Shown here in pieces: positions 30,084 through 38,627 of a stretch of DNA of 64,000 nt; position 1 is the stretch's first letter; every line of letters begins with the position of its first letter. A program made the translations under genes and the position numbers. The DNA comes from a virus: the IMG/VR virus record IMGVR_UViG_3300008448_012223. One strand, given 5' to 3'. The notes under the pieces were generated by a model. That model ran no database searches, was not told where the DNA came from, and saw only the letters and a list, made by a program, of their open reading frames with translations.

Positions 30084-30147
30084 GAGCTGTTCTCTTGGAC
30101 TAGTGTTCACAGGAAGGAAAAAAGGTGCATTGCTGTCCCTCTGTTAT

Positions 30148-30987: not shown

Positions 30988-31166
30988 AGTCTCCTCCTTG
31001 GAGATAAGTTCATGAAAGAAAAAAGGGGCCTCGGGCCCCTCCTTACCTACTCTACTTATTCAGCTCCGCTCACTCACGGCGGAGCTTCTCTATTTCCTGC
31101 CTTACCTGTTCCATCTCGTGGCTTTACGCCGCAAGATCAATAACAGGAGCGGGGCGGCGTTGTTGA

Positions 31167-33137
31167 TCAGTTATGACTGATCACATAGACGCGCTTAGCA
31201 TCCGTGTAATCTTGATAGTCTTTTGGTAGAAGAGACCGTCCTACCTTAAGTGGCTCGCCCCATGCGTCGAAGGCACCATAGAGATCCCCGTTTGCTCCGA
31301 GGAGCACCCGATTGACGAAGGCATTATAGAGATACCCGTCTGCTCCGAGGCGCACCCCTTTGATGAACCACATCTTAAGAATCTTCTGGGCTATCTCTTC
31401 GTAGAGAAGAATAACCGTGGGCTCTCGTTGCCCTAGCCCAAGTGCTTCGCAATTATCGAAGCACAGATCCCCGGACTGGTTAATCCAGGTCCAGGACTGC
31501 GCTATTATTCCTGAATTATCCTCGAATATGAGGAATCCGGAGTTGCGCTTTTCTTGCCCATACCAAGCGCAGGTTTCCCCAGCCCCGTCTGGGTGCTGGC
31601 AACAGTTAGTATATTCACCGAGGAAGAGCCCTCGCGTATCCTCCCGGGGGAGGAAGTAGGCGCGGATTCCATCCCGGGTAGCATCAATCCCCGAAAGGAA
31701 ATCTGGTATTTGTAGAGAACGTATAAAACGCCCCTCGTAGTAGTTGTAATCCCGCGCAGATACACCCCAATTGGCGCACTCCAGGGCAAACCCCTGGTGG
31801 TTAATACTTGCGTACTTACGTGTCTTACATACCGTCACCAGTAGACGGAATGGCAGAGAGCGCTCCTCCACGCTCAGTTTGTGCCAGACTCGGCATATTA
31901 AGCCGAGTTCAGAAAATGAGGTGGAGCGCTGGCGTAGGCGCTCCCCCTGTGCGAATAGGAACTCGCTCAATCCCTGCCCGCCGAGGGGTAGCCAGTAAGT
32001 GGCGTCATGCTCGCTGTAGCCGAGCTTGGCCATCTTAGTGAGCCACTCCTCAGAGCGGCTTCCGAAAGTTGTTACTAATGGGACGAGGTACTCTGGAGGA
32101 TTCTCCCGTAGTAGCAATAGCTTATTAGCTACTGCTACCTTCAGGGTGGGTATATACCCCTCCTCCCCAAATATAGTTTCTTCGTTCTCTTTAAAGGCTT
32201 TGAGCAAAGGGCGCTCAATAGCCCAACTAAGTTCCCCGTACAATTTACGGAGGGCTAGGCGCTTGTGGCCATTAAGCCATAAGTACTGGGCTATGGCCGT
32301 GCGCCCCGAGTGGCACACCTCATTAAAGCGCTGCCAGAAGGCAGCGATGCGTTCGGTACGGGAACGACGGCGCGCCCGATCCCACTGTCCCCCCTCCTCT
32401 TTCCAGAGGACCCCAGCAAGGGCTCGGAGGTCTGGGCGGGACTTGTACATAGTTCCCAGCCGTACGGCTAAAGATTTGGGAATCTCTGTGTTATATTTCC
32501 ATGTCCGCGCAGCTGGGATTAGATCCCATACGTTACCAATGCGGGTGGGAACAGACATATGAACCAGTACCCGCTTAACCCAAATGGGTAAGCGGTTATA
32601 GTTTGGGGTAAGCGCTACCCTTAACACTTTACTGTGATCCGGTTGGTAACCGGAGTTCCATACCCGCCCAGGGGTGCGGACATCCTCCCATAGAGGGAGG
32701 ATGCGCTTGACCTCCCACCAGTACTTAACACCTAGATCTACTAAGTGTTCAGCCAGCTGAGGAGTTCTTAGCTCCTCGAACCAAACCCCTTCTTTCTCAT
32801 AAGAGAGTCCGATACCCTCGTTTAAACGAAGGTATCGGATAAGGCGCAGGCGCACCATGTGCGCCTCCTTTGCTTCCTCCAAGCTTACTTCTCGGGTGAT
32901 GACCCGAGAGATAATCCAGCGCTGGGAGCTGGATAGACTATTCCACTCCTCCCACTCACTCCAGGGAGTATGTGGATTGAGTTCCAGCCACTGCCGGAAC
33001 TCAAGTAGAACGTTATAAAGAGAGAAATAGTAGGGAGCGGGGTCAGCTCCTAACTCAGCTTGTGCCTCCCACTCAAGGGAGTAGGCAAGCTGAAGGCGAG
33101 CCGCCTTGGTTTTGGCGGATTTGATAAACTTAGACAT
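31167..33137 (-). CDS. PcfJ-related GNAT-like domain protein
   Basis: C-terminal LG.YTNCCQH..GAGE.CA..G....GFL.F....IIAQSW.W.....L.FDN.E pattern. Confidence 0.6.
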   Translation of the reverse strand: MSKFIKSAKTKAARLQLAYSLEWEAQAELGADPAPYYFSLYNVLLEFRQWLELNPHTPWSEWEEWNSLSSSQRWIISRVITREVSLEEAKEAHMVRLRLIRYLRLNEGIGLSYEKEGVWFEELRTPQLAEHLVDLGVKYWWEVKRILPLWEDVRTPGRVWNSGYQPDHSKVLRVALTPNYNRLPIWVKRVLVHMSVPTRIGNVWDLIPAARTWKYNTEIPKSLAVRLGTMYKSRPDLRALAGVLWKEEGGQWDRARRRSRTERIAAFWQRFNEVCHSGRTAIAQYLWLNGHKRLALRKLYGELSWAIERPLLKAFKENEETIFGEEGYIPTLKVAVANKLLLLRENPPEYLVPLVTTFGSRSEEWLTKMAKLGYSEHDATYWLPLGGQGLSEFLFAQGERLRQRSTSFSELGLICRVWHKLSVEERSLPFRLLVTVCKTRKYASINHQGFALECANWGVSARDYNYYEGRFIRSLQIPDFLSGIDATRDGIRAYFLPREDTRGLFLGEYTNCCQHPDGAGETCAWYGQEKRNSGFLIFEDNSGIIAQSWTWINQSGDLCFDNCEALGLGQREPTVILLYEEIAQKILKMWFIKGVRLGADGYLYNAFVNRVLLGANGDLYGAFDAWGEPLKVGRSLLPKDYQDYTDAKRVYVISHN

Positions 33138-33203
33138 AGAATTGTCCTCCTGGGACTAAAATTCACCAGAAGAAAAAAGGACCTTATCAAGACCCCTTAA
33201 TTA

Positions 33204-33347
33204 TTATTTATTTACCTCCTCACAGAGTGAAGATTTCAGGTCTCCGTAACAGGCCTCTACGGCTATTCCGCCAACAATGGCGGAGCAGCTAAATGTTAAT
33301 ATTATGATAGAGACAATATAGACGATATCGTACTTACCTAATTTCAT
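33204..33347 (-). CDS. Micro membrane protein family A (47 aa)
   Basis: MKLGKYDIVYIVSIIILTFSCSAIVGGIAVEACYGDLKSSLCEEVNK; AGGAGG RBS. Confidence 0.75.
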   Translation of the reverse strand: MKLGKYDIVYIVSIIILTFSCSAIVGGIAVEACYGDLKSSLCEEVNK

Positions 33348-33415
33348 AATTCCTCCTAGGATTAATAGATCACTAGAAGAAAAAAGGGGATAAAGCATAT
33401 CCCCTTTTAATTAAA

Positions 33416-33931
33416 TTACTTTAACCAGCTTAAGTCTAGCTGGTAATAGAGAAGTTTATCACTCTTCTCTATTGTCTCGAAGAGACCATAGAGGCACTCC
33501 TCGAGATGATCTCGGTCCACCCGGCTAGTCAGACCGAGCCCCTCCCAGGTAGGCTGAGGGGGTTTAATCTCTACCAAGCAGGTCTTGGTGATGCCAACAG
33601 CCAAACGAAGACTGTCGGTACGGCATAACTGGCCCAGCTTCTTATCTACTGCCTCGGCGTCGGTAGTAAGCTGAAGAGCCCATAGCTCGCCAGTATACTG
33701 GCGGACTATTACGTCCACCTTGTATACCCGGTCTAGTACTCCCCAATCATCAGTGGGGACGAGACGACGAAGGACACCGCCTCGGGAGTTGAGCTCTAGA
33801 TGTTCACCCGCGAGATCACGCGCCTGGTTATACAGATAACCCGTATTCCATATCTCTCGGGGCTTCGGACACTCGAAGCCTAACTCTTCAACTAGGCGTA
33901 ACACTACTTTCTCCATCTGTAAACCATTCAT
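33416..33931 (-). CDS. Possible PD-(D/E)XK-like nuclease
   Basis: D...LDRVYKVDVIV...ALQLT spacing. Confidence 0.45.
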   Translation of the reverse strand: MNGLQMEKVVLRLVEELGFECPKPREIWNTGYLYNQARDLAGEHLELNSRGGVLRRLVPTDDWGVLDRVYKVDVIVRQYTGELWALQLTTDAEAVDKKLGQLCRTDSLRLAVGITKTCLVEIKPPQPTWEGLGLTSRVDRDHLEECLYGLFETIEKSDKLLYYQLDLSWLK

Positions 33932-33996
33932 GATGTACTCCTAGGATTATAGATCACTAGAAGGAAAAAGGGGCCCCCGCCCAGGCCCCTTAACTA

Positions 33997-34131
33997 CTAC
34001 TCTTTGTCTACCTCACATAGTGAAGACGGTAGAGGTCCATAACAGGCCTCATGGTATACTCCACCAACGATAGCGCCGCATACGCCAAGGATGACGGCAA
34101 CAGCCGCTATGTAAGATAATGTGTATTTCAT
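33997..34131 (-). CDS. Micro membrane protein family A (44 aa)
   Basis: MKYTLSYIAAVAVILGVCGAIVGGVYHEACYGPLPSSLCEVDKE. Confidence 0.75.
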   Translation of the reverse strand: MKYTLSYIAAVAVILGVCGAIVGGVYHEACYGPLPSSLCEVDKE

Positions 34132-34200
34132 AATCCCTCCTAGGGTTATAAGATCACTAAAAGAAAAGGGGCCTTACCAAGGCCCCTTATTTATTATTTA

Positions 34201-34344
34201 TTATTTATTCACCTCCTCACAGAGTGGAGACTTCGGGTCTCCGTAACAGGATTCCACGGCTACTCCACCAACAATGGCGGAGCAAGTAATTGTTAGGAAT
34301 AGCATACATACAATGTATGCTATATCATACTTATCTAGCTTCAT
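34201..34344 (-). CDS. Micro membrane protein family A (47 aa)
   Basis: MKLDKYDIAYIVCMLFLTITCSAIVGGVAVESCYGDPKSPLCEEVNK. Confidence 0.75.
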   Translation of the reverse strand: MKLDKYDIAYIVCMLFLTITCSAIVGGVAVESCYGDPKSPLCEEVNK

Positions 34345-34404
34345 ATATCCTCCTAGGAGTTAACTTCACTAGAAGAAAAAGGGGCGCAGTGCCCCTTCTA
34401 TCAA

Positions 34405-34725
34405 CTACTTAACAAGGATGTAGTTGATGTTGAACTGGAGTATATCCTCCTCCGTCCATCGTTCTCCTTCTGCCAGCCGCCGGGGGCTGACAAATAAACA
34501 TACAATATACTCGGCCCCCGAGGGCACCTGTACCCGATTCACGGGTATGTTTACTCCGAGACGGGCGGAGAGGAGCTCCGCCGTAGAGAGGTGTCCGAGA
34601 GCACTTGTCCACTCAGTAGTGGAGAGGAGAGCGCGGGTCTCTTCCTCTGAAATACAAGTACTAGTGATAGCCCCACCCGGCGTGGTAGGGTAAAGGGAGT
34701 TTGGGAAAGAATTAAGAACGTACAT
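34405..34725 (-). CDS. acrIII-1: AcrIII-1 (DUF1874) viral ring nuclease, anti-type III CRISPR
   Basis: Y.LNSF N-terminus, SALGH45.ST..LLS, NR64V, R83LAE86G; spacing matches SIRV1 gp29 H47/R66/R85/E88 as recalled. Confidence 0.85.
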   Translation of the reverse strand: MYVLNSFPNSLYPTTPGGAITSTCISEEETRALLSTTEWTSALGHLSTAELLSARLGVNIPVNRVQVPSGAEYIVCLFVSPRRLAEGERWTEEDILQFNINYILVK

Positions 34726-34794
34726 AATCTTCCTCTAAGGTTTAAAGTTCACTAGAAGAAAAAGGGAGCATTACACTCCCTAAATTACCCCAAG

Positions 34795-35139
34795 TTACTT
34801 GATATAACCTGGGTTCCAGTTAATTACTGGTTCGACGACGAACTCACCGCCGAATATTACCATCTTAGACCAGACTATGCGTCTGGTTGGTAATGCAACC
34901 TCATCGTAGTAGTTTGGGTCGTCTTCGACGTACCACCAGGGGCGGTGGGCTTCGACGTTCCCGTCGAAAGCAAGGATGAAGACTGACCCGTATCCTCCAC
35001 GGGCGAAGTCCTTGGCCACTGCCAAACTGCGGCTGGCATAAAGAACTTCGCTACAACGATCCCAATCTAAGTGATCGTTGGTATGACCACGATAGGCGTA
35101 GTCATACTCCCTGGGAAGATGTTTATATATACTCATCAT
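34795..35139 (-). CDS. ADP-ribosyltransferase-like protein (R-S-E type)
   Basis: YRG...YASRSLAVAKDFA..G.VF...DEV. Confidence 0.5.
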   Translation of the reverse strand: MMSIYKHLPREYDYAYRGHTNDHLDWDRCSEVLYASRSLAVAKDFARGGYGSVFILAFDGNVEAHRPWWYVEDDPNYYDEVALPTRRIVWSKMVIFGGEFVVEPVINWNPGYIK

Positions 35140-35214
35140 AGGTGTTCTCCTGTGGACTAGTGTTCACAGAAAGAAAAAAGGGGCATTGCTGCCCCTTAAT
35201 TATTATTTATCTAC

Positions 35215-35358
35215 CTATTTATCAGTCTTACACATTGACAGTGCGGGGTAGTCGTAGCAGACAACCCGGTAGAAGGCGCCAAGAATTAGACCATTCACGC
35301 CGAGCACGAGTGCAGCAGCCACAATTAAACCGAGTATATCGTCTTTGATAGATTTCAT
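35215..35358 (-). CDS. Micro membrane protein family A (47 aa, divergent)
   Basis: MKSIKDDILGLIVAAALVLGVNGLILGAFYRVVCYDYPALSMCKTDK. Confidence 0.7.
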   Translation of the reverse strand: MKSIKDDILGLIVAAALVLGVNGLILGAFYRVVCYDYPALSMCKTDK

Positions 35359-35422
35359 AATGTCTCCTCCTGGAGATTATAGATCACCAGAAGAAAAAGG
35401 GGCCCTGCCCAGACCCCTTTTC

Positions 35423-35560
35423 TTATCTCATGTTTATATACTCCTGACGCACAGTCGGTATATTCTGGCCGTCTCCACGTTCTGGTAGCTGGCTGGCCAA
35501 TACCGTCATGAAGATAATAGGAATTACTACGACGCTGATAATTAGAGCTAATGATTTCAT
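35423..35560 (-). CDS. 45-aa membrane micro-protein
   Basis: MKSLALIISVVVIPIIFMTVLASQLPERGDGQNIPTVRQEYINMR; AGGAG RBS; first cassette of the array. Confidence 0.65.
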   Translation of the reverse strand: MKSLALIISVVVIPIIFMTVLASQLPERGDGQNIPTVRQEYINMR

Positions 35561-35646
35561 ATACCCTCCTAGGGTTATAGACCACTAGAAGGAAAAAGGG
35601 GCCAATTGAAGGGCCGGGTGGGGGAGGGGATATACCCTATAATACG

Positions 35647-35744
35647 CCCAAATACCGCCAGCAAGTTTATGGAATCTAAGAGCTCTAGGTATTAATACGT
35701 ATACACCCAAATACCGCCAGCAAATATCGAGAATCTAGAAGCTC
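35647..35744. repeat. Two approximately 40-bp direct repeats, period 59
   Basis: CCCAAATACCGCCAGCAA at 35647 and 35706, each followed by GAATCT..AGCTC. Confidence 0.85.
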
Positions 35745-35748
35745 AATA

Positions 35749-36426
35749 ATGAGGCAGAGAGGTGTAGTAGTATGGACCAGTTATATAGGAGGTAATGGTA
35801 TGTTAGAGGACATCAAGGGAGCGGTTAGGGTAGAGAAGTTGAGTGAGATACAGGTAAGGGAATTACAGAGGAGGCTAGGGATACAGCAGACAGGAATAAT
35901 GGGGCCAATGACGAGGAAGGCCTGGGAGGACTGGAAGAGGAGTAAGGGTATGGGGGAACCGGGGTTAATAGGGCCGGGTTCTATAGGTCTATTACTAGAG
36001 GAGATAAACTGGACGGATATGACGAGTAAGGTGAGTAAGTACTTCACAGTGAGAGAAGTAACGAAGGGGGAGGCGGCGCGCATACCAACGAGTAAGGTCA
36101 TCCAAGACAATATAATGAGACTAGCTAAGGAGTTAGATAAGATAAGGGAAGAGTGGGGTAAGCCCATTATAGTAACGAGTTGGTATAGGCCCCTTGCGAT
36201 TAACAGGGCAGTAGGAGGAGTGGATAATAGTCAGCATATAGAGGGGCTAGCAGTAGACATAGCGCCCATAGACCCCGCCGAGCTAATCGAGTTCGAGAGA
36301 TGGTTAGACGAGCATTGGTATGGGCCGCTGGGGTGGGGGGCCCAGAGTGGGAGGGGCTTCACGCACCTAGGGTTAACGAGGGGGTGGAGAGCAGGAGGAA
36401 AGAAGGGGCCCCGCTGGAGATACTAA
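35749..36426 (+). CDS. Peptidase M15 endolysin with N-terminal peptidoglycan-binding-like domain
   Basis: VTSWYRP..INRAVGG..NSQH..G.AVDI...FTHL; the real start may be MLEDIK. Confidence 0.88.
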   Translation: MRQRGVVVWTSYIGGNGMLEDIKGAVRVEKLSEIQVRELQRRLGIQQTGIMGPMTRKAWEDWKRSKGMGEPGLIGPGSIGLLLEEINWTDMTSKVSKYFTVREVTKGEAARIPTSKVIQDNIMRLAKELDKIREEWGKPIIVTSWYRPLAINRAVGGVDNSQHIEGLAVDIAPIDPAELIEFERWLDEHWYGPLGWGAQSGRGFTHLGLTRGWRAGGKKGPRWRY

Positions 36427-36483
36427 TGCCTACCCCTCCCCATACAAGACAAGGAGCATTAGCATACTAATACAAGTAGAAGT

Positions 36484-37239
36484 ATGCTAAGAAACATTGA
36501 TAGAGCAATGCGGCTGCAAGAGTTAAATAGTCAGCAGGTGCGGGAGCTACAACAGGAGCTAGGTGGTTTAGTAGTAGATGGGGTAATGGGGCCGAGGACA
36601 GAGGCTAGGTGGAAGGAGTGGAAGGAGGCAAATAATCAAGCGGAGCCCGACCTAATAGGGCCAGGCTCTGTGCGTCTATTATTATCAGATGATGAAGTAA
36701 TGACGAGAGGAGAATACGATCTAGCGTTAGCCCCCGCCTCTAAGAGAGATAGAGATCGATACTACAGGCCCCTAATGGCAGCGATGGAGGAGTGTAATAT
36801 AAAGGAGCCCGCGCGTATAGCGATGTTCCTAGCTCAGCTGATGCACGAGTCAGGGAACCTACGCTACGATGAGGAGATATGGGGGCCCACACCAATACAG
36901 AGGGGATACGAGGGCAGGAGAGACCTCGGTAATATAAAGGTAGGAGATGGGCGAAGATTCAGGGGTAGAGGTTTATTTCAGTTAACGGGCCGGGCCAATT
37001 ACCAAAACATGGGGAATATGCTAGGGCTACCGCTAGTAGATAGCCCAGAACTAGCAAAGGAGCCCGTCAACTCAGCACGCATAGCAGCGCACTACTGGAG
37101 AACACGGGGGCTAAATGAAATAGCAGACAAGAATGATATAGACGCATTCAGGCAGGTAACGCGACGTATCAATGGCGGGCTGATAGGGTTATCAGATAGA
37201 CTAGAACACTGGAAGAGAATACAGGCAGTGCTGACATGA
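36484..37239 (+). CDS. Glycoside hydrolase family 19 (chitinase-like) lysozyme
   Basis: FLAQLMHESG.LRY.EE, YEGRRDLGN...GDG..FRGRG.FQLTGR.NY, TRRINGG. Confidence 0.92.
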   Translation: MLRNIDRAMRLQELNSQQVRELQQELGGLVVDGVMGPRTEARWKEWKEANNQAEPDLIGPGSVRLLLSDDEVMTRGEYDLALAPASKRDRDRYYRPLMAAMEECNIKEPARIAMFLAQLMHESGNLRYDEEIWGPTPIQRGYEGRRDLGNIKVGDGRRFRGRGLFQLTGRANYQNMGNMLGLPLVDSPELAKEPVNSARIAAHYWRTRGLNEIADKNDIDAFRQVTRRINGGLIGLSDRLEHWKRIQAVLT

Positions 37240-37646
37240 TAACAGGGAGGTTCCGTATATATCCGAGTAGAGACAACTATATGCTAGAGGAGGATAGTCA
37301 CTACTATGAGGCCCGCATTCACGACACTGTGGGATCTCTACTATTATGGGGGCACCAGAAGAGAGGGGGTCATACAGTAGACTATAAGGCCATAGTAATA
37401 CCAGACTATAATGTAAATGAGGATGGCTATATACATAGTAGAGTGGGATGGGTGGGGTTATGTCTCCCTTACCTAGATGCCGGTATAATAGCGCATGAGG
37501 CTCTACACATAGCCACATCATATCTGAGACTGAAGGGTCTACTTAAACTAGGAGAGGATATAGATGATGATGAGGAGATACTAGCATATACGCTAGGTAC
37601 GGTAATGAGCCAGATAGGGACATACATACATAAGAGATACAGTTAA
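37236..37646 (+). CDS. Hypothetical protein with HExxH motif
   Basis: IAHEALH...DDEEILAY. Confidence 0.6.
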   Translation: MITGRFRIYPSRDNYMLEEDSHYYEARIHDTVGSLLLWGHQKRGGHTVDYKAIVIPDYNVNEDGYIHSRVGWVGLCLPYLDAGIIAHEALHIATSYLRLKGLLKLGEDIDDDEEILAYTLGTVMSQIGTYIHKRYS

Positions 37647-37706
37647 TGTTATTACGGGAAGCGCTTAGTTCACTTAGGAGTTAATTTATCATTTAGGAGT
37701 TAATTT

Positions 37707-38627
37707 ATGACGTTACCTATTGTCGGCTCGAGATACGGATACGCAACTTATGGTTGGCGTACATCTGCGGTTGGCGGAGTATATTTTAATATGCCTAATT
37801 TTCTTTTATTCCTGGATGCTATTGGCATCACATCGACACATCGATTTGTCAGAGCGGATGGGACGCTAATTAATCTTCGATTTCCAGAAGTTGATACTGA
37901 TTTAATCCAGTTGGGAGATGTAACTGAAAGTCTTAGCCAGGGGCGGCATAGGGTGTCAATGGAACGTGCTAATAATAATGTTGGAACTAACCCATTTTTC
38001 TGGTCGCTCTTAGGGCACACCTATGCCACAAAAACTCAACTTAACGACACAAGATCTACAACAATAAGCCCGTATAGCGCAGCCTCAGGATACTTCTACG
38101 CCTGTGCCGATGATAAGGGGATTGCTATGTTCGCGGCGACTAATACTGGATTAACTACATATAGTGGCCAGACATCTTTTCACTATTTTGGATACTGCGA
38201 GGATCCAGCATCCGTAGCTTATTTTGGCAATAATAACAGCTATCCACTGGACTATGTTGGATCTGGCGGTAGTAATTTTATAAGATACAAAGATATGGTG
38301 GTACCTGGAGGAGGAGGCGGCGCGCAACCCTCTCAACCTGTGGTAGTTATTGGATCTATTAATTGCGTCACTCCTACTCCTGGTGCCAATATTACCGATC
38401 TTATGTTTAGAGATAGCGGCACTACCGATTACGGCATTAATTATCCACTGGGAATAGCGAGGCCGTTCTTATTATTTAGTAACCAAAATCTAGAAGTGAA
38501 TAGTCTAGTAAGGGTTATGTCAACCCCACCGACACCAGAAGATCACTTTCATATAGTAGTTAGCGCTGTTTCTGGTGGCGGCAGCATATTAATGCCAATT
38601 ATTACTGAAAATTACTCTCTGCCATAG
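37707..38627 (+). CDS. Putative virion/tail-associated protein
   Basis: Beta-rich, Gly/Thr/Ser/Asn-rich; codon style differs from the flanking genes. Confidence 0.55.
   Translation: MTLPIVGSRYGYATYGWRTSAVGGVYFNMPNFLLFLDAIGITSTHRFVRADGTLINLRFPEVDTDLIQLGDVTESLSQGRHRVSMERANNNVGTNPFFWSLLGHTYATKTQLNDTRSTTISPYSAASGYFYACADDKGIAMFAATNTGLTTYSGQTSFHYFGYCEDPASVAYFGNNNSYPLDYVGSGGSNFIRYKDMVVPGGGGGAQPSQPVVVIGSINCVTPTPGANITDLMFRDSGTTDYGINYPLGIARPFLLFSNQNLEVNSLVRVMSTPPTPEDHFHIVVSAVSGGGSILMPIITENYSLP

Follow-up and report, generated by a model that had tools for sequence, protein, structure and literature searches.

The locus and its cassette

The stretch of DNA analysed here, hereafter the window, comprises 64,000 nucleotides of the IMG/VR virus record IMGVR_UViG_3300008448_012223. 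An earlier reading of the bare sequence (the original prediction) had attributed it to a Microcystis phage, and database comparison agrees: the stretch is Ma-LMM01-like (genus Fukuivirus), with ~91% nucleotide identity to MaMV-CH01 and Ma-LMM01. Megablast of positions 33000-37500 recovers Ma-LMM01-like Microcystis phages at 84-95% identity; as no record covers 80% or more of this segment, the stretch represents a new phage related to MaMV-CH01 and Ma-LMM01. The locus considered here is a small gene within a leftward array of short cassettes, with the following features:

33145..35615, minus strand: leftward array of about nine short cassettes split by hairpin-and-box units (ORFs, repeats, terminator scan)
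34405..34725, minus strand: acrIII-1-like gene for a 106-aa DUF1874 (PF08960) protein, with an ATG start and the stop codon within the coordinates (ORF list, Pfam)
34593-34591, minus strand: CAC codon of the predicted catalytic His45 (read from the DNA)
34536-34534, minus strand: CGG codon of Arg64 (read from the DNA)
34479-34477, minus strand: CGG codon of the predicted lid-loop Arg83 (read from the DNA)
34470-34468, minus strand: GAA codon of Glu86 (read from the DNA)
34726..34794, minus strand: upstream intergenic unit (repeat families D1, D3 and D4; terminator scan; RNAfold)
34781-34763, minus strand: terminator-like hairpin of the preceding gene, with T-tract (terminator scan)
34750-34772, plus strand: repeat copy of the CTTCTAGTG box upstream of the DUF1874 gene (repeat search)
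34345..34404, minus strand: downstream intergenic unit of the same type as the upstream one (repeat families D3, D4 and D11; RNAfold)
34367-34389: repeat copy of the CTTCTAGTG box downstream of the DUF1874 gene (repeat search)
34367..34749, minus strand: 383-bp box-to-box cassette holding the DUF1874 gene only (blastn; D3 repeat spacing of 383)

The cassettes are separated by a repeated intergenic unit of ~55 nt, made up of a GC hairpin, a T-tract and a CTTCTAGTG box that folds on the AGGAG ribosome-binding site of the next gene. At least nine copies, at spacings of 198-635 nt, lie in 33145-35615, with more near 30096-30147 and 30992-31043, and terminator-like sites are enriched across 31000-38000 (17, versus 5.3 +/- 2.7 in shuffles). 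In the unit upstream of the DUF1874 gene, the hairpin and its T-tract are followed by the box and then, 7 nt ahead of the ATG, by a GAGGA ribosome-binding site; RNAfold predicts two adjacent hairpins here, the second pairing the box with the ribosome-binding region (-18.4 kcal/mol). The downstream unit begins with a GC hairpin and T-tract just past the stop codon, followed by the box, and is likewise predicted to form two hairpins (-23.5 kcal/mol), with the box pairing with the ribosome-binding site of the next small gene.

Comparison with relatives delimits the cassette. In Ma-LMM01 and MaMV-DC, blastn shows the flanking segments 34137-34383 and 34745-35130 directly joined, with an overlap of one 22-bp copy of the box. 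This contiguity over a single box copy in phages that lack the gene indicates that the latter forms one 383-bp unit; among the related phages the DUF1874 cassette is thus present or absent as a unit. In every relative compared, the gene sits between phage genes. The other cassettes of the array carry genes of 45, 47, 114, 47, 44, 171 and 64 aa, and their order and number differ among 10 related genomes and contigs that share the modules. The array is a variable, modular accessory region.

Family membership and predicted structure

The original prediction had read the encoded protein as an AcrIII-1 ring nuclease, to be checked by a DUF1874 search, and profile searches uphold the family assignment. 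It matches Pfam family PF08960 (STIV_B116-like, formerly DUF1874) with an E-value of 2.3e-12 and 47.3 bits, where the curated gathering score is 26 bits, and the match aligns residues 2-101 with positions 2-100 of the 101-position profile. The corresponding PHROG is phrog_5063 (E 3.5e-15). When 1.84 billion cluster representatives were searched exhaustively with phmmer, 266 relatives were recovered at E <= 1e-3, and 76 diverse sequences from among them were aligned. Used as a single sequence, the protein finds its best match among solved structures in AFV3-109 (E 1e-12), and the 76-sequence profile matches every solved DUF1874 structure in the PDB at E-values from 5e-34 to 9e-16. These matches include AFV3-109 (5e-34), STIV B116 (2e-21), SIRV1 gp29 (6e-21), the complex of the SIRV1 gp29 H47A mutant with cA4 (6scf; 1.4e-18) and the Crn2 domain of the Marinitoga Csx1-Crn2 protein (9e-16).

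The AlphaFold2 model built from the 76-sequence alignment (pLDDT 96.9, pTM 0.86) conforms to the same picture. In a Foldseek search of the PDB, a probability of 1.0 was reached solely by DUF1874 entries, the next matches having E-values above 2, and the best TM-score (0.76) was obtained with the cA4-bound SIRV1 structure 6scf. VIA-align superimposes 91-102 residues of the model on the DUF1874 structures at an rmsd of 2.3-3.0, with Z-scores of 13.3 (2j6b), 12.9 (6scf), 12.8 (2x4i), 11.7 (2j85) and 11.4 (8y7f/8y7g). A complex prediction with two copies of the chain returned an ipSAE of 0.76, versus 0.00 for the best of three controls, with the runs agreeing in 100% of contacts and a partner pLDDT of at least 85; in structures already solved, 20 of 30 paired proteins and 1 of 23 single-chain proteins attain the ipSAE mark used. 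The protein is accordingly predicted to be a homodimer, which, given that DUF1874 dimers are already among the solved structures, shows likeness to them rather than furnishing independent proof. Taken together, the protein is almost certainly a member of the DUF1874/AcrIII-1 family.

Conservation of the active site

The original prediction had further pointed out that H45, R64, R83 and E86 share the relative spacing of H47, R66, R85 and E88 of SIRV1 gp29. The phmmer/HMMER alignment to the latter (PDB 2x4i) is ungapped, with query residues 32-98 on chain residues 34-100, and hence, at a constant offset of 2, the four residues do fall opposite their named counterparts. As judged from the aligned sequences, this spacing is not due to chance. 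In the 76-representative family alignment, H45, R64 and R83 are each present in 74 of the 76 sequences and E86 in 70, and all four lie within the eight most conserved columns. More broadly, Ser41 is invariant, and conservation across these sequences is 90% or higher at Gly44, His45, Ala49, Arg64, Arg83, Glu86 and Gly87; H45 is invariant in the 12 close orthologues and the 8 locus orthologues. Pairwise dN/dS values against 8 orthologues are 0.17-0.27 (about 0.2), with all key residues kept; the gene is under purifying selection.

Biochemical studies on SIRV1 gp29 give these positions functional meaning. Its H47 is the absolutely conserved general acid, whose replacement in H47A entails a more than 2500-fold loss, and its R85 belongs to the lid loop and locks the dimer in the closed form (bioRxiv 10.1101/778746). 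E88 is not named in that preprint, and E86 is its counterpart in the alignment. The reported side-chain contacts to cA4 are made by R66, N8, Q81, S11, T50, S49 and N13 (10.1101/778746), and the alignment places N5, S47, T48, R64 and R83 of the phage protein as identical counterparts of N8, S49, T50, R66 and R85. The columns of N5, H45, S47, T48, R64 and R83 are 85-100% conserved across the 76-sequence alignment. Three of the ~10 cA4-contacting side chains of SIRV1 gp29 differ, namely S11 (P8 in the phage protein), N13 (S10) and Q81 (V79 or F78). These three positions are variable among family members, Pro (29/76) and Ser (19/76) being frequent there, and the pocket therefore does not appear remodelled.

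The three dissimilar pocket positions, together with the very many defence systems of Microcystis (PMC5780444, introduction), could be taken to mean that the protein binds or cleaves some other cyclic nucleotide, such as cA3, cA6 or a CBASS- or Thoeris-type messenger, or that it is a sponge rather than an enzyme. We hold this to be very unlikely: the protein retains the catalytic His together with the two Arg, has residues frequent in the family where it deviates, and yields a model closest to the closed form with bound cA4; every DUF1874 member tested, moreover, is cA4-specific (10.1101/778746). The tested members with activity in experiments include bacterial and phage representatives, viz., the phage THSA-485A homologue and B. 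subtilis YddF (10.1101/778746). A second alternative draws on an older label that archaeal-virus members of DUF1874 bear in databases, several lipothrixvirus homologues being entered in RefSeq as 'DNA binding protein', and would make the protein a DNA-binding or structural component devoid of a signalling role. That label, however, is older than the discovery of the enzymatic activity, and it sits poorly with the strong conservation of the active-site residues; we regard this alternative as highly improbable. By homology, then, the protein is likely to cleave cA4.

Distribution among Microcystis phages

By tblastn, 85%-identical orthologues are present in MaMV-CH01 (gene 80L), CH02, DL01, DL02 and DH01, and none was found in Ma-LMM01 or MaMV-DC. 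The PF08960 HMM run on complete genome records likewise returned zero matches in Ma-LMM01 and MaMV-DC and one copy in MaMV-CH01. Thirty proteins at 84-99% identity come from metagenomes and MAGs, and seven IMG/VR contigs carry the gene. The orthologues in the five MaMV phages and the Microcystis MAG protein are 85-91% identical to the window's protein, lie in the same array and keep all the key residues. One MAG copy is named 'DUF1874 domain-containing protein [Microcystis sp. M20BS1]' at NCBI; all five MaMV phage records label their orthologue 'hypothetical protein'. Remoter homologues, at 32-35% identity by tblastn, occur in other tailed phages, namely Hydrogenobaculum phage 1 and Fusobacterium phages. 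Ten of the nearest cluster representatives share 40-50% identity with the window's protein. A conserved-pattern search of genome contigs gave one weak match in Gemmatimonadales, a result that reflects a limit of the method and is uninformative on distribution.

The paper that founded AcrIII-1 already listed homologues in Caudovirales phages and cyanobacteria (10.1101/778746). In our literature search, no paper ties AcrIII-1 or DUF1874 to Microcystis phages or to a cyanophage, and the papers that mention MaMV-CH01 or Microcystis anti-CRISPR do not identify the DUF1874 gene.

Host type III immunity and the proposed mechanism

The original prediction had invoked type III systems in Microcystis, and published work on hosts of this phage group documents type III-B loci, Csx1 and phage-matching spacers (PMC11855584). 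The MaMV phages were isolated on M. aeruginosa FACHB-524, whose CRISPR systems comprise one of type I-B, one of type I-D and three of type III-B; the type III-B loci include Csx1/CARF accessory genes (PMC11855584). Five spacers from two of the type III-B clusters match six MaMV genomes, one of them being identical to gene 1L in all six, and Csx1 boosted Cmr immunity when the system was reconstituted in E. coli (PMC11855584). The MaMV phages infect FACHB-524 despite the matching spacers (PMC11855584), which fits with a phage-encoded inhibitor of cOA signalling.

Against this background, we propose that the protein is probably a viral AcrIII-1 ring nuclease that counters the type III-B immunity of its host by removing cA4. 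By homology, the homodimer would bind one cA4 molecule at the dimer interface, and the lid loop, which spans roughly residues 80-92 and includes Arg83 and Glu86, would close over it. His45 of each subunit is predicted to serve as the general acid, donating a proton to the leaving group as the 2'-OH attacks in line. The cA4 ring would be cut at two opposite phosphodiesters into two linear di-adenylates (A2). Infected Microcystis would thereby be deprived of the second messenger that Cas10 of the host type III-B (Cmr) complexes produces; with CARF effectors such as Csx1 left inactive, type III-B immunity would have its collateral, RNA-degrading arm blunted or disabled. An actual anti-CRISPR effect during infection is, on balance, the side to which we lean; it involves not only cA4 turnover but also host systems that signal with cA4 and a protein made early or abundantly enough, all of which we infer.

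Type III immunity fires only once its target is transcribed. As part of the matched protospacers are located in late genes (PMC11855584), a ring nuclease of the middle expression class could therefore still be timely in a 6-12 h infection cycle. The question of timing arises from Ma-LMM01, in which the point matching the cassette insertion site is flanked by gp066 and gp067. In that phage the early class consists of gp054-gp063 only, and gp066 and gp067 belong to the middle class B5; at 1 h the log2 values of the latter two are 1.6-2.8, as against 7.3-7.9 for the early gp062-gp063 (PMC5780444). A precedent for the consequences of such timing is SIRV2 gp37, closely related to the AcrIII-1 that founded the family, which is a bona fide ring nuclease and yet has no Acr activity in the native infection, because it is expressed in the middle to late phase (bioRxiv 10.1101/2023.01.10.523387). 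The middle-class flanking genes and this precedent favour an alternative in which the phage protein is an active cA4 ring nuclease that comes too late, or in too small an amount, to be an effective Acr in natural infection, and confers a milder benefit, for example, by limiting late signalling damage or by binding to a protein of the host, as has been reported of SIRV2 gp37. In the same direction, the gene is dispensable in MaMV-DC and Ma-LMM01: MaMV-DC, without the cassette by HMM search, infects the same FACHB-524, which carries the spacer identical to its gene 1L (PMC11855584), and the gene is therefore not required on that host. Countering this alternative, in addition to the dependence of the host response on target transcription, are the purifying selection that keeps the gene in most environmental relatives and the confinement of the host partner of gp37 to Crenarchaeota (10.1101/2023.01.10.523387). 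We consider the alternative unlikely and retain the anti-CRISPR ring nuclease as the preferred reading.

The surrounding array

The original prediction had also designated the array an anti-defence island. The data do not support this designation, since none of the neighbours can be assigned a function: the nine neighbouring ORFs match no Pfam family, and their PHROGs are all of unknown function.

Several of the neighbours have features worth recording. Four paralogous ORFs of 44-64 aa (33204-33398, 33997-34131, 34201-34344 and 35215-35358, all on the minus strand) each encode a single hydrophobic helix and share a C-terminal Cys-Tyr-Gly ... Cys-Glu motif. Each forms a cassette of its own, with 1 to 4 copies among ten related phage genomes and contigs, and searches for a family match to them returned none. 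The 114-aa neighbour (34795-35139, minus strand) belongs to phrog_35503, of unknown function, and its Ma-LMM01 counterpart, gp067, has 134 aa. In the ESM Atlas it reaches a cluster of Arr-type ADP-ribosyltransferases at rank 11 (score 0.92, with a low number of shared features, 131), a lead only; its AlphaFold2 model, from a shallow alignment of 9 sequences, is unusable at a pLDDT of 38.8. The 171-aa protein (33416-33931, minus strand; phrog_28304) corresponds to gp066 of Ma-LMM01. Its ESM Atlas match to a cyanobacterial 'putative endonuclease' cluster (score 0.94, 190 shared features) and the restriction-endonuclease families at lower rank are, again, leads only.

The position of a gene for a 656-aa protein (31167-33137, minus strand) shifts: relative to the DUF1874 gene, it is four cassettes downstream in the window but directly upstream in two IMG/VR contigs (L005, 221-2191; L006, 2846-4816), and in MaMV-DC another part of the array carries a 697-aa relative. 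Such shifts indicate reshuffling of the cassettes. Within the 656-aa ORF, two tandem 48-nt copies at 31268-31363 (85% identical) encode a 16-residue protein repeat. At the other end, 35616-35744 is the divergent region between the leftward array and rightward lysis genes, and holds a 44-nt direct repeat (35642-35685 and 35701-35744, 82% identical), both copies of which are conserved in Ma-LMM01, MaMV-DC and MaMV-CH01. The two adjacent lysis-type genes are on the plus strand. The first (35749-36426) has a Peptidase_M15_3 domain and a weak peptidoglycan-binding motif, and most of it is missing in MaMV-DC; the second (36484-37239) is the counterpart of the Ma-LMM01 gene labelled endolysin or chitinase.

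One may conjecture, with considerable doubt, that the array is a cassette-exchange region of Fukuivirus in which AcrIII-1 is the first identifiable cargo. The co-varying cassettes for the 114-aa and 171-aa proteins and the 44-64-aa membrane peptides would then include new inhibitors of Microcystis defences, and the polymorphism of AcrIII-1 would track the type III genotypes of the hosts that can be infected.

Relationship to known ring nucleases and significance

The closest solved relative by sequence is AFV3-109 of Acidianus filamentous virus 3 (PDB 2j6b), with 35-40% identity over residues 2-89 and the highest Z-score (13.3); it comes from an archaeal lipothrixvirus, and its likeness to the phage protein rests on sequence and fold. 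With SIRV1 gp29 (AcrIII-1) the protein shares the Pfam family, the fold (Z 12.8-12.9, TM 0.76), the length class, a viral provenance, the identically spaced set of the catalytic His with Arg/Arg/Glu and, as predicted here, the homodimeric state. In contrast, the two are only ~17-21% identical, the ring-nuclease role of the Microcystis phage protein being putative; their hosts are a thermophilic archaeon and a mesophilic cyanobacterium, respectively; and S11, N13 and Q81 of the archaeal viral pocket are replaced by P8, S10 and V79/F78. The precedents for an AcrIII-1 in a tailed phage are the phage THSA-485A homologue and YddF of ICEBs1 (Bacillus subtilis), which are family members on bacterial mobile elements that degrade cA4 or abolish cA4-dependent type III immunity (10.1101/778746). 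These come from phyla different from that of the host of the window's phage and are likened to its protein by family. The cellular DUF1874 proteins, Crn2 (e.g., Marinitoga Csx1-Crn2; 8y7f, 8y7g, 8y6z), share the domain and fold of the phage protein (Z 11.4; profile E 9e-16) and, to go by homology, its chemistry. However, Crn2 is host-encoded, CRISPR-linked, often fused to an effector and self-limiting in its role, whereas the window's protein is the product of a free-standing 106-aa phage gene without CRISPR context. Being phage-borne and outside any CRISPR locus, the gene falls on the AcrIII-1 side rather than with the cellular Crn2.

What we describe extends a known counter-defence tool to a new group of phages and does not amount to a novel type of system; the gene itself is a routine homology call, already made by current Pfam-based pipelines. 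Microcystis is a toxic bloom former. It also has one of the largest known defence arsenals, and the literature searched describes no counter-defence gene for its phages. The proposal is readily testable, in that a reconstitution of Cmr plus Csx1 from FACHB-524 exists in E. coli and that host strain itself has matching type III-B spacers. Moreover, the sister isolates with the cassette (MaMV-CH01, CH02, DL01, DL02 and DH01) versus those without it (MaMV-DC and Ma-LMM01) constitute a natural experiment. The annotation supplies a concrete candidate for a counter-defence gene of Microcystis phages, and its gain lies in annotation and experimental design rather than in concept.
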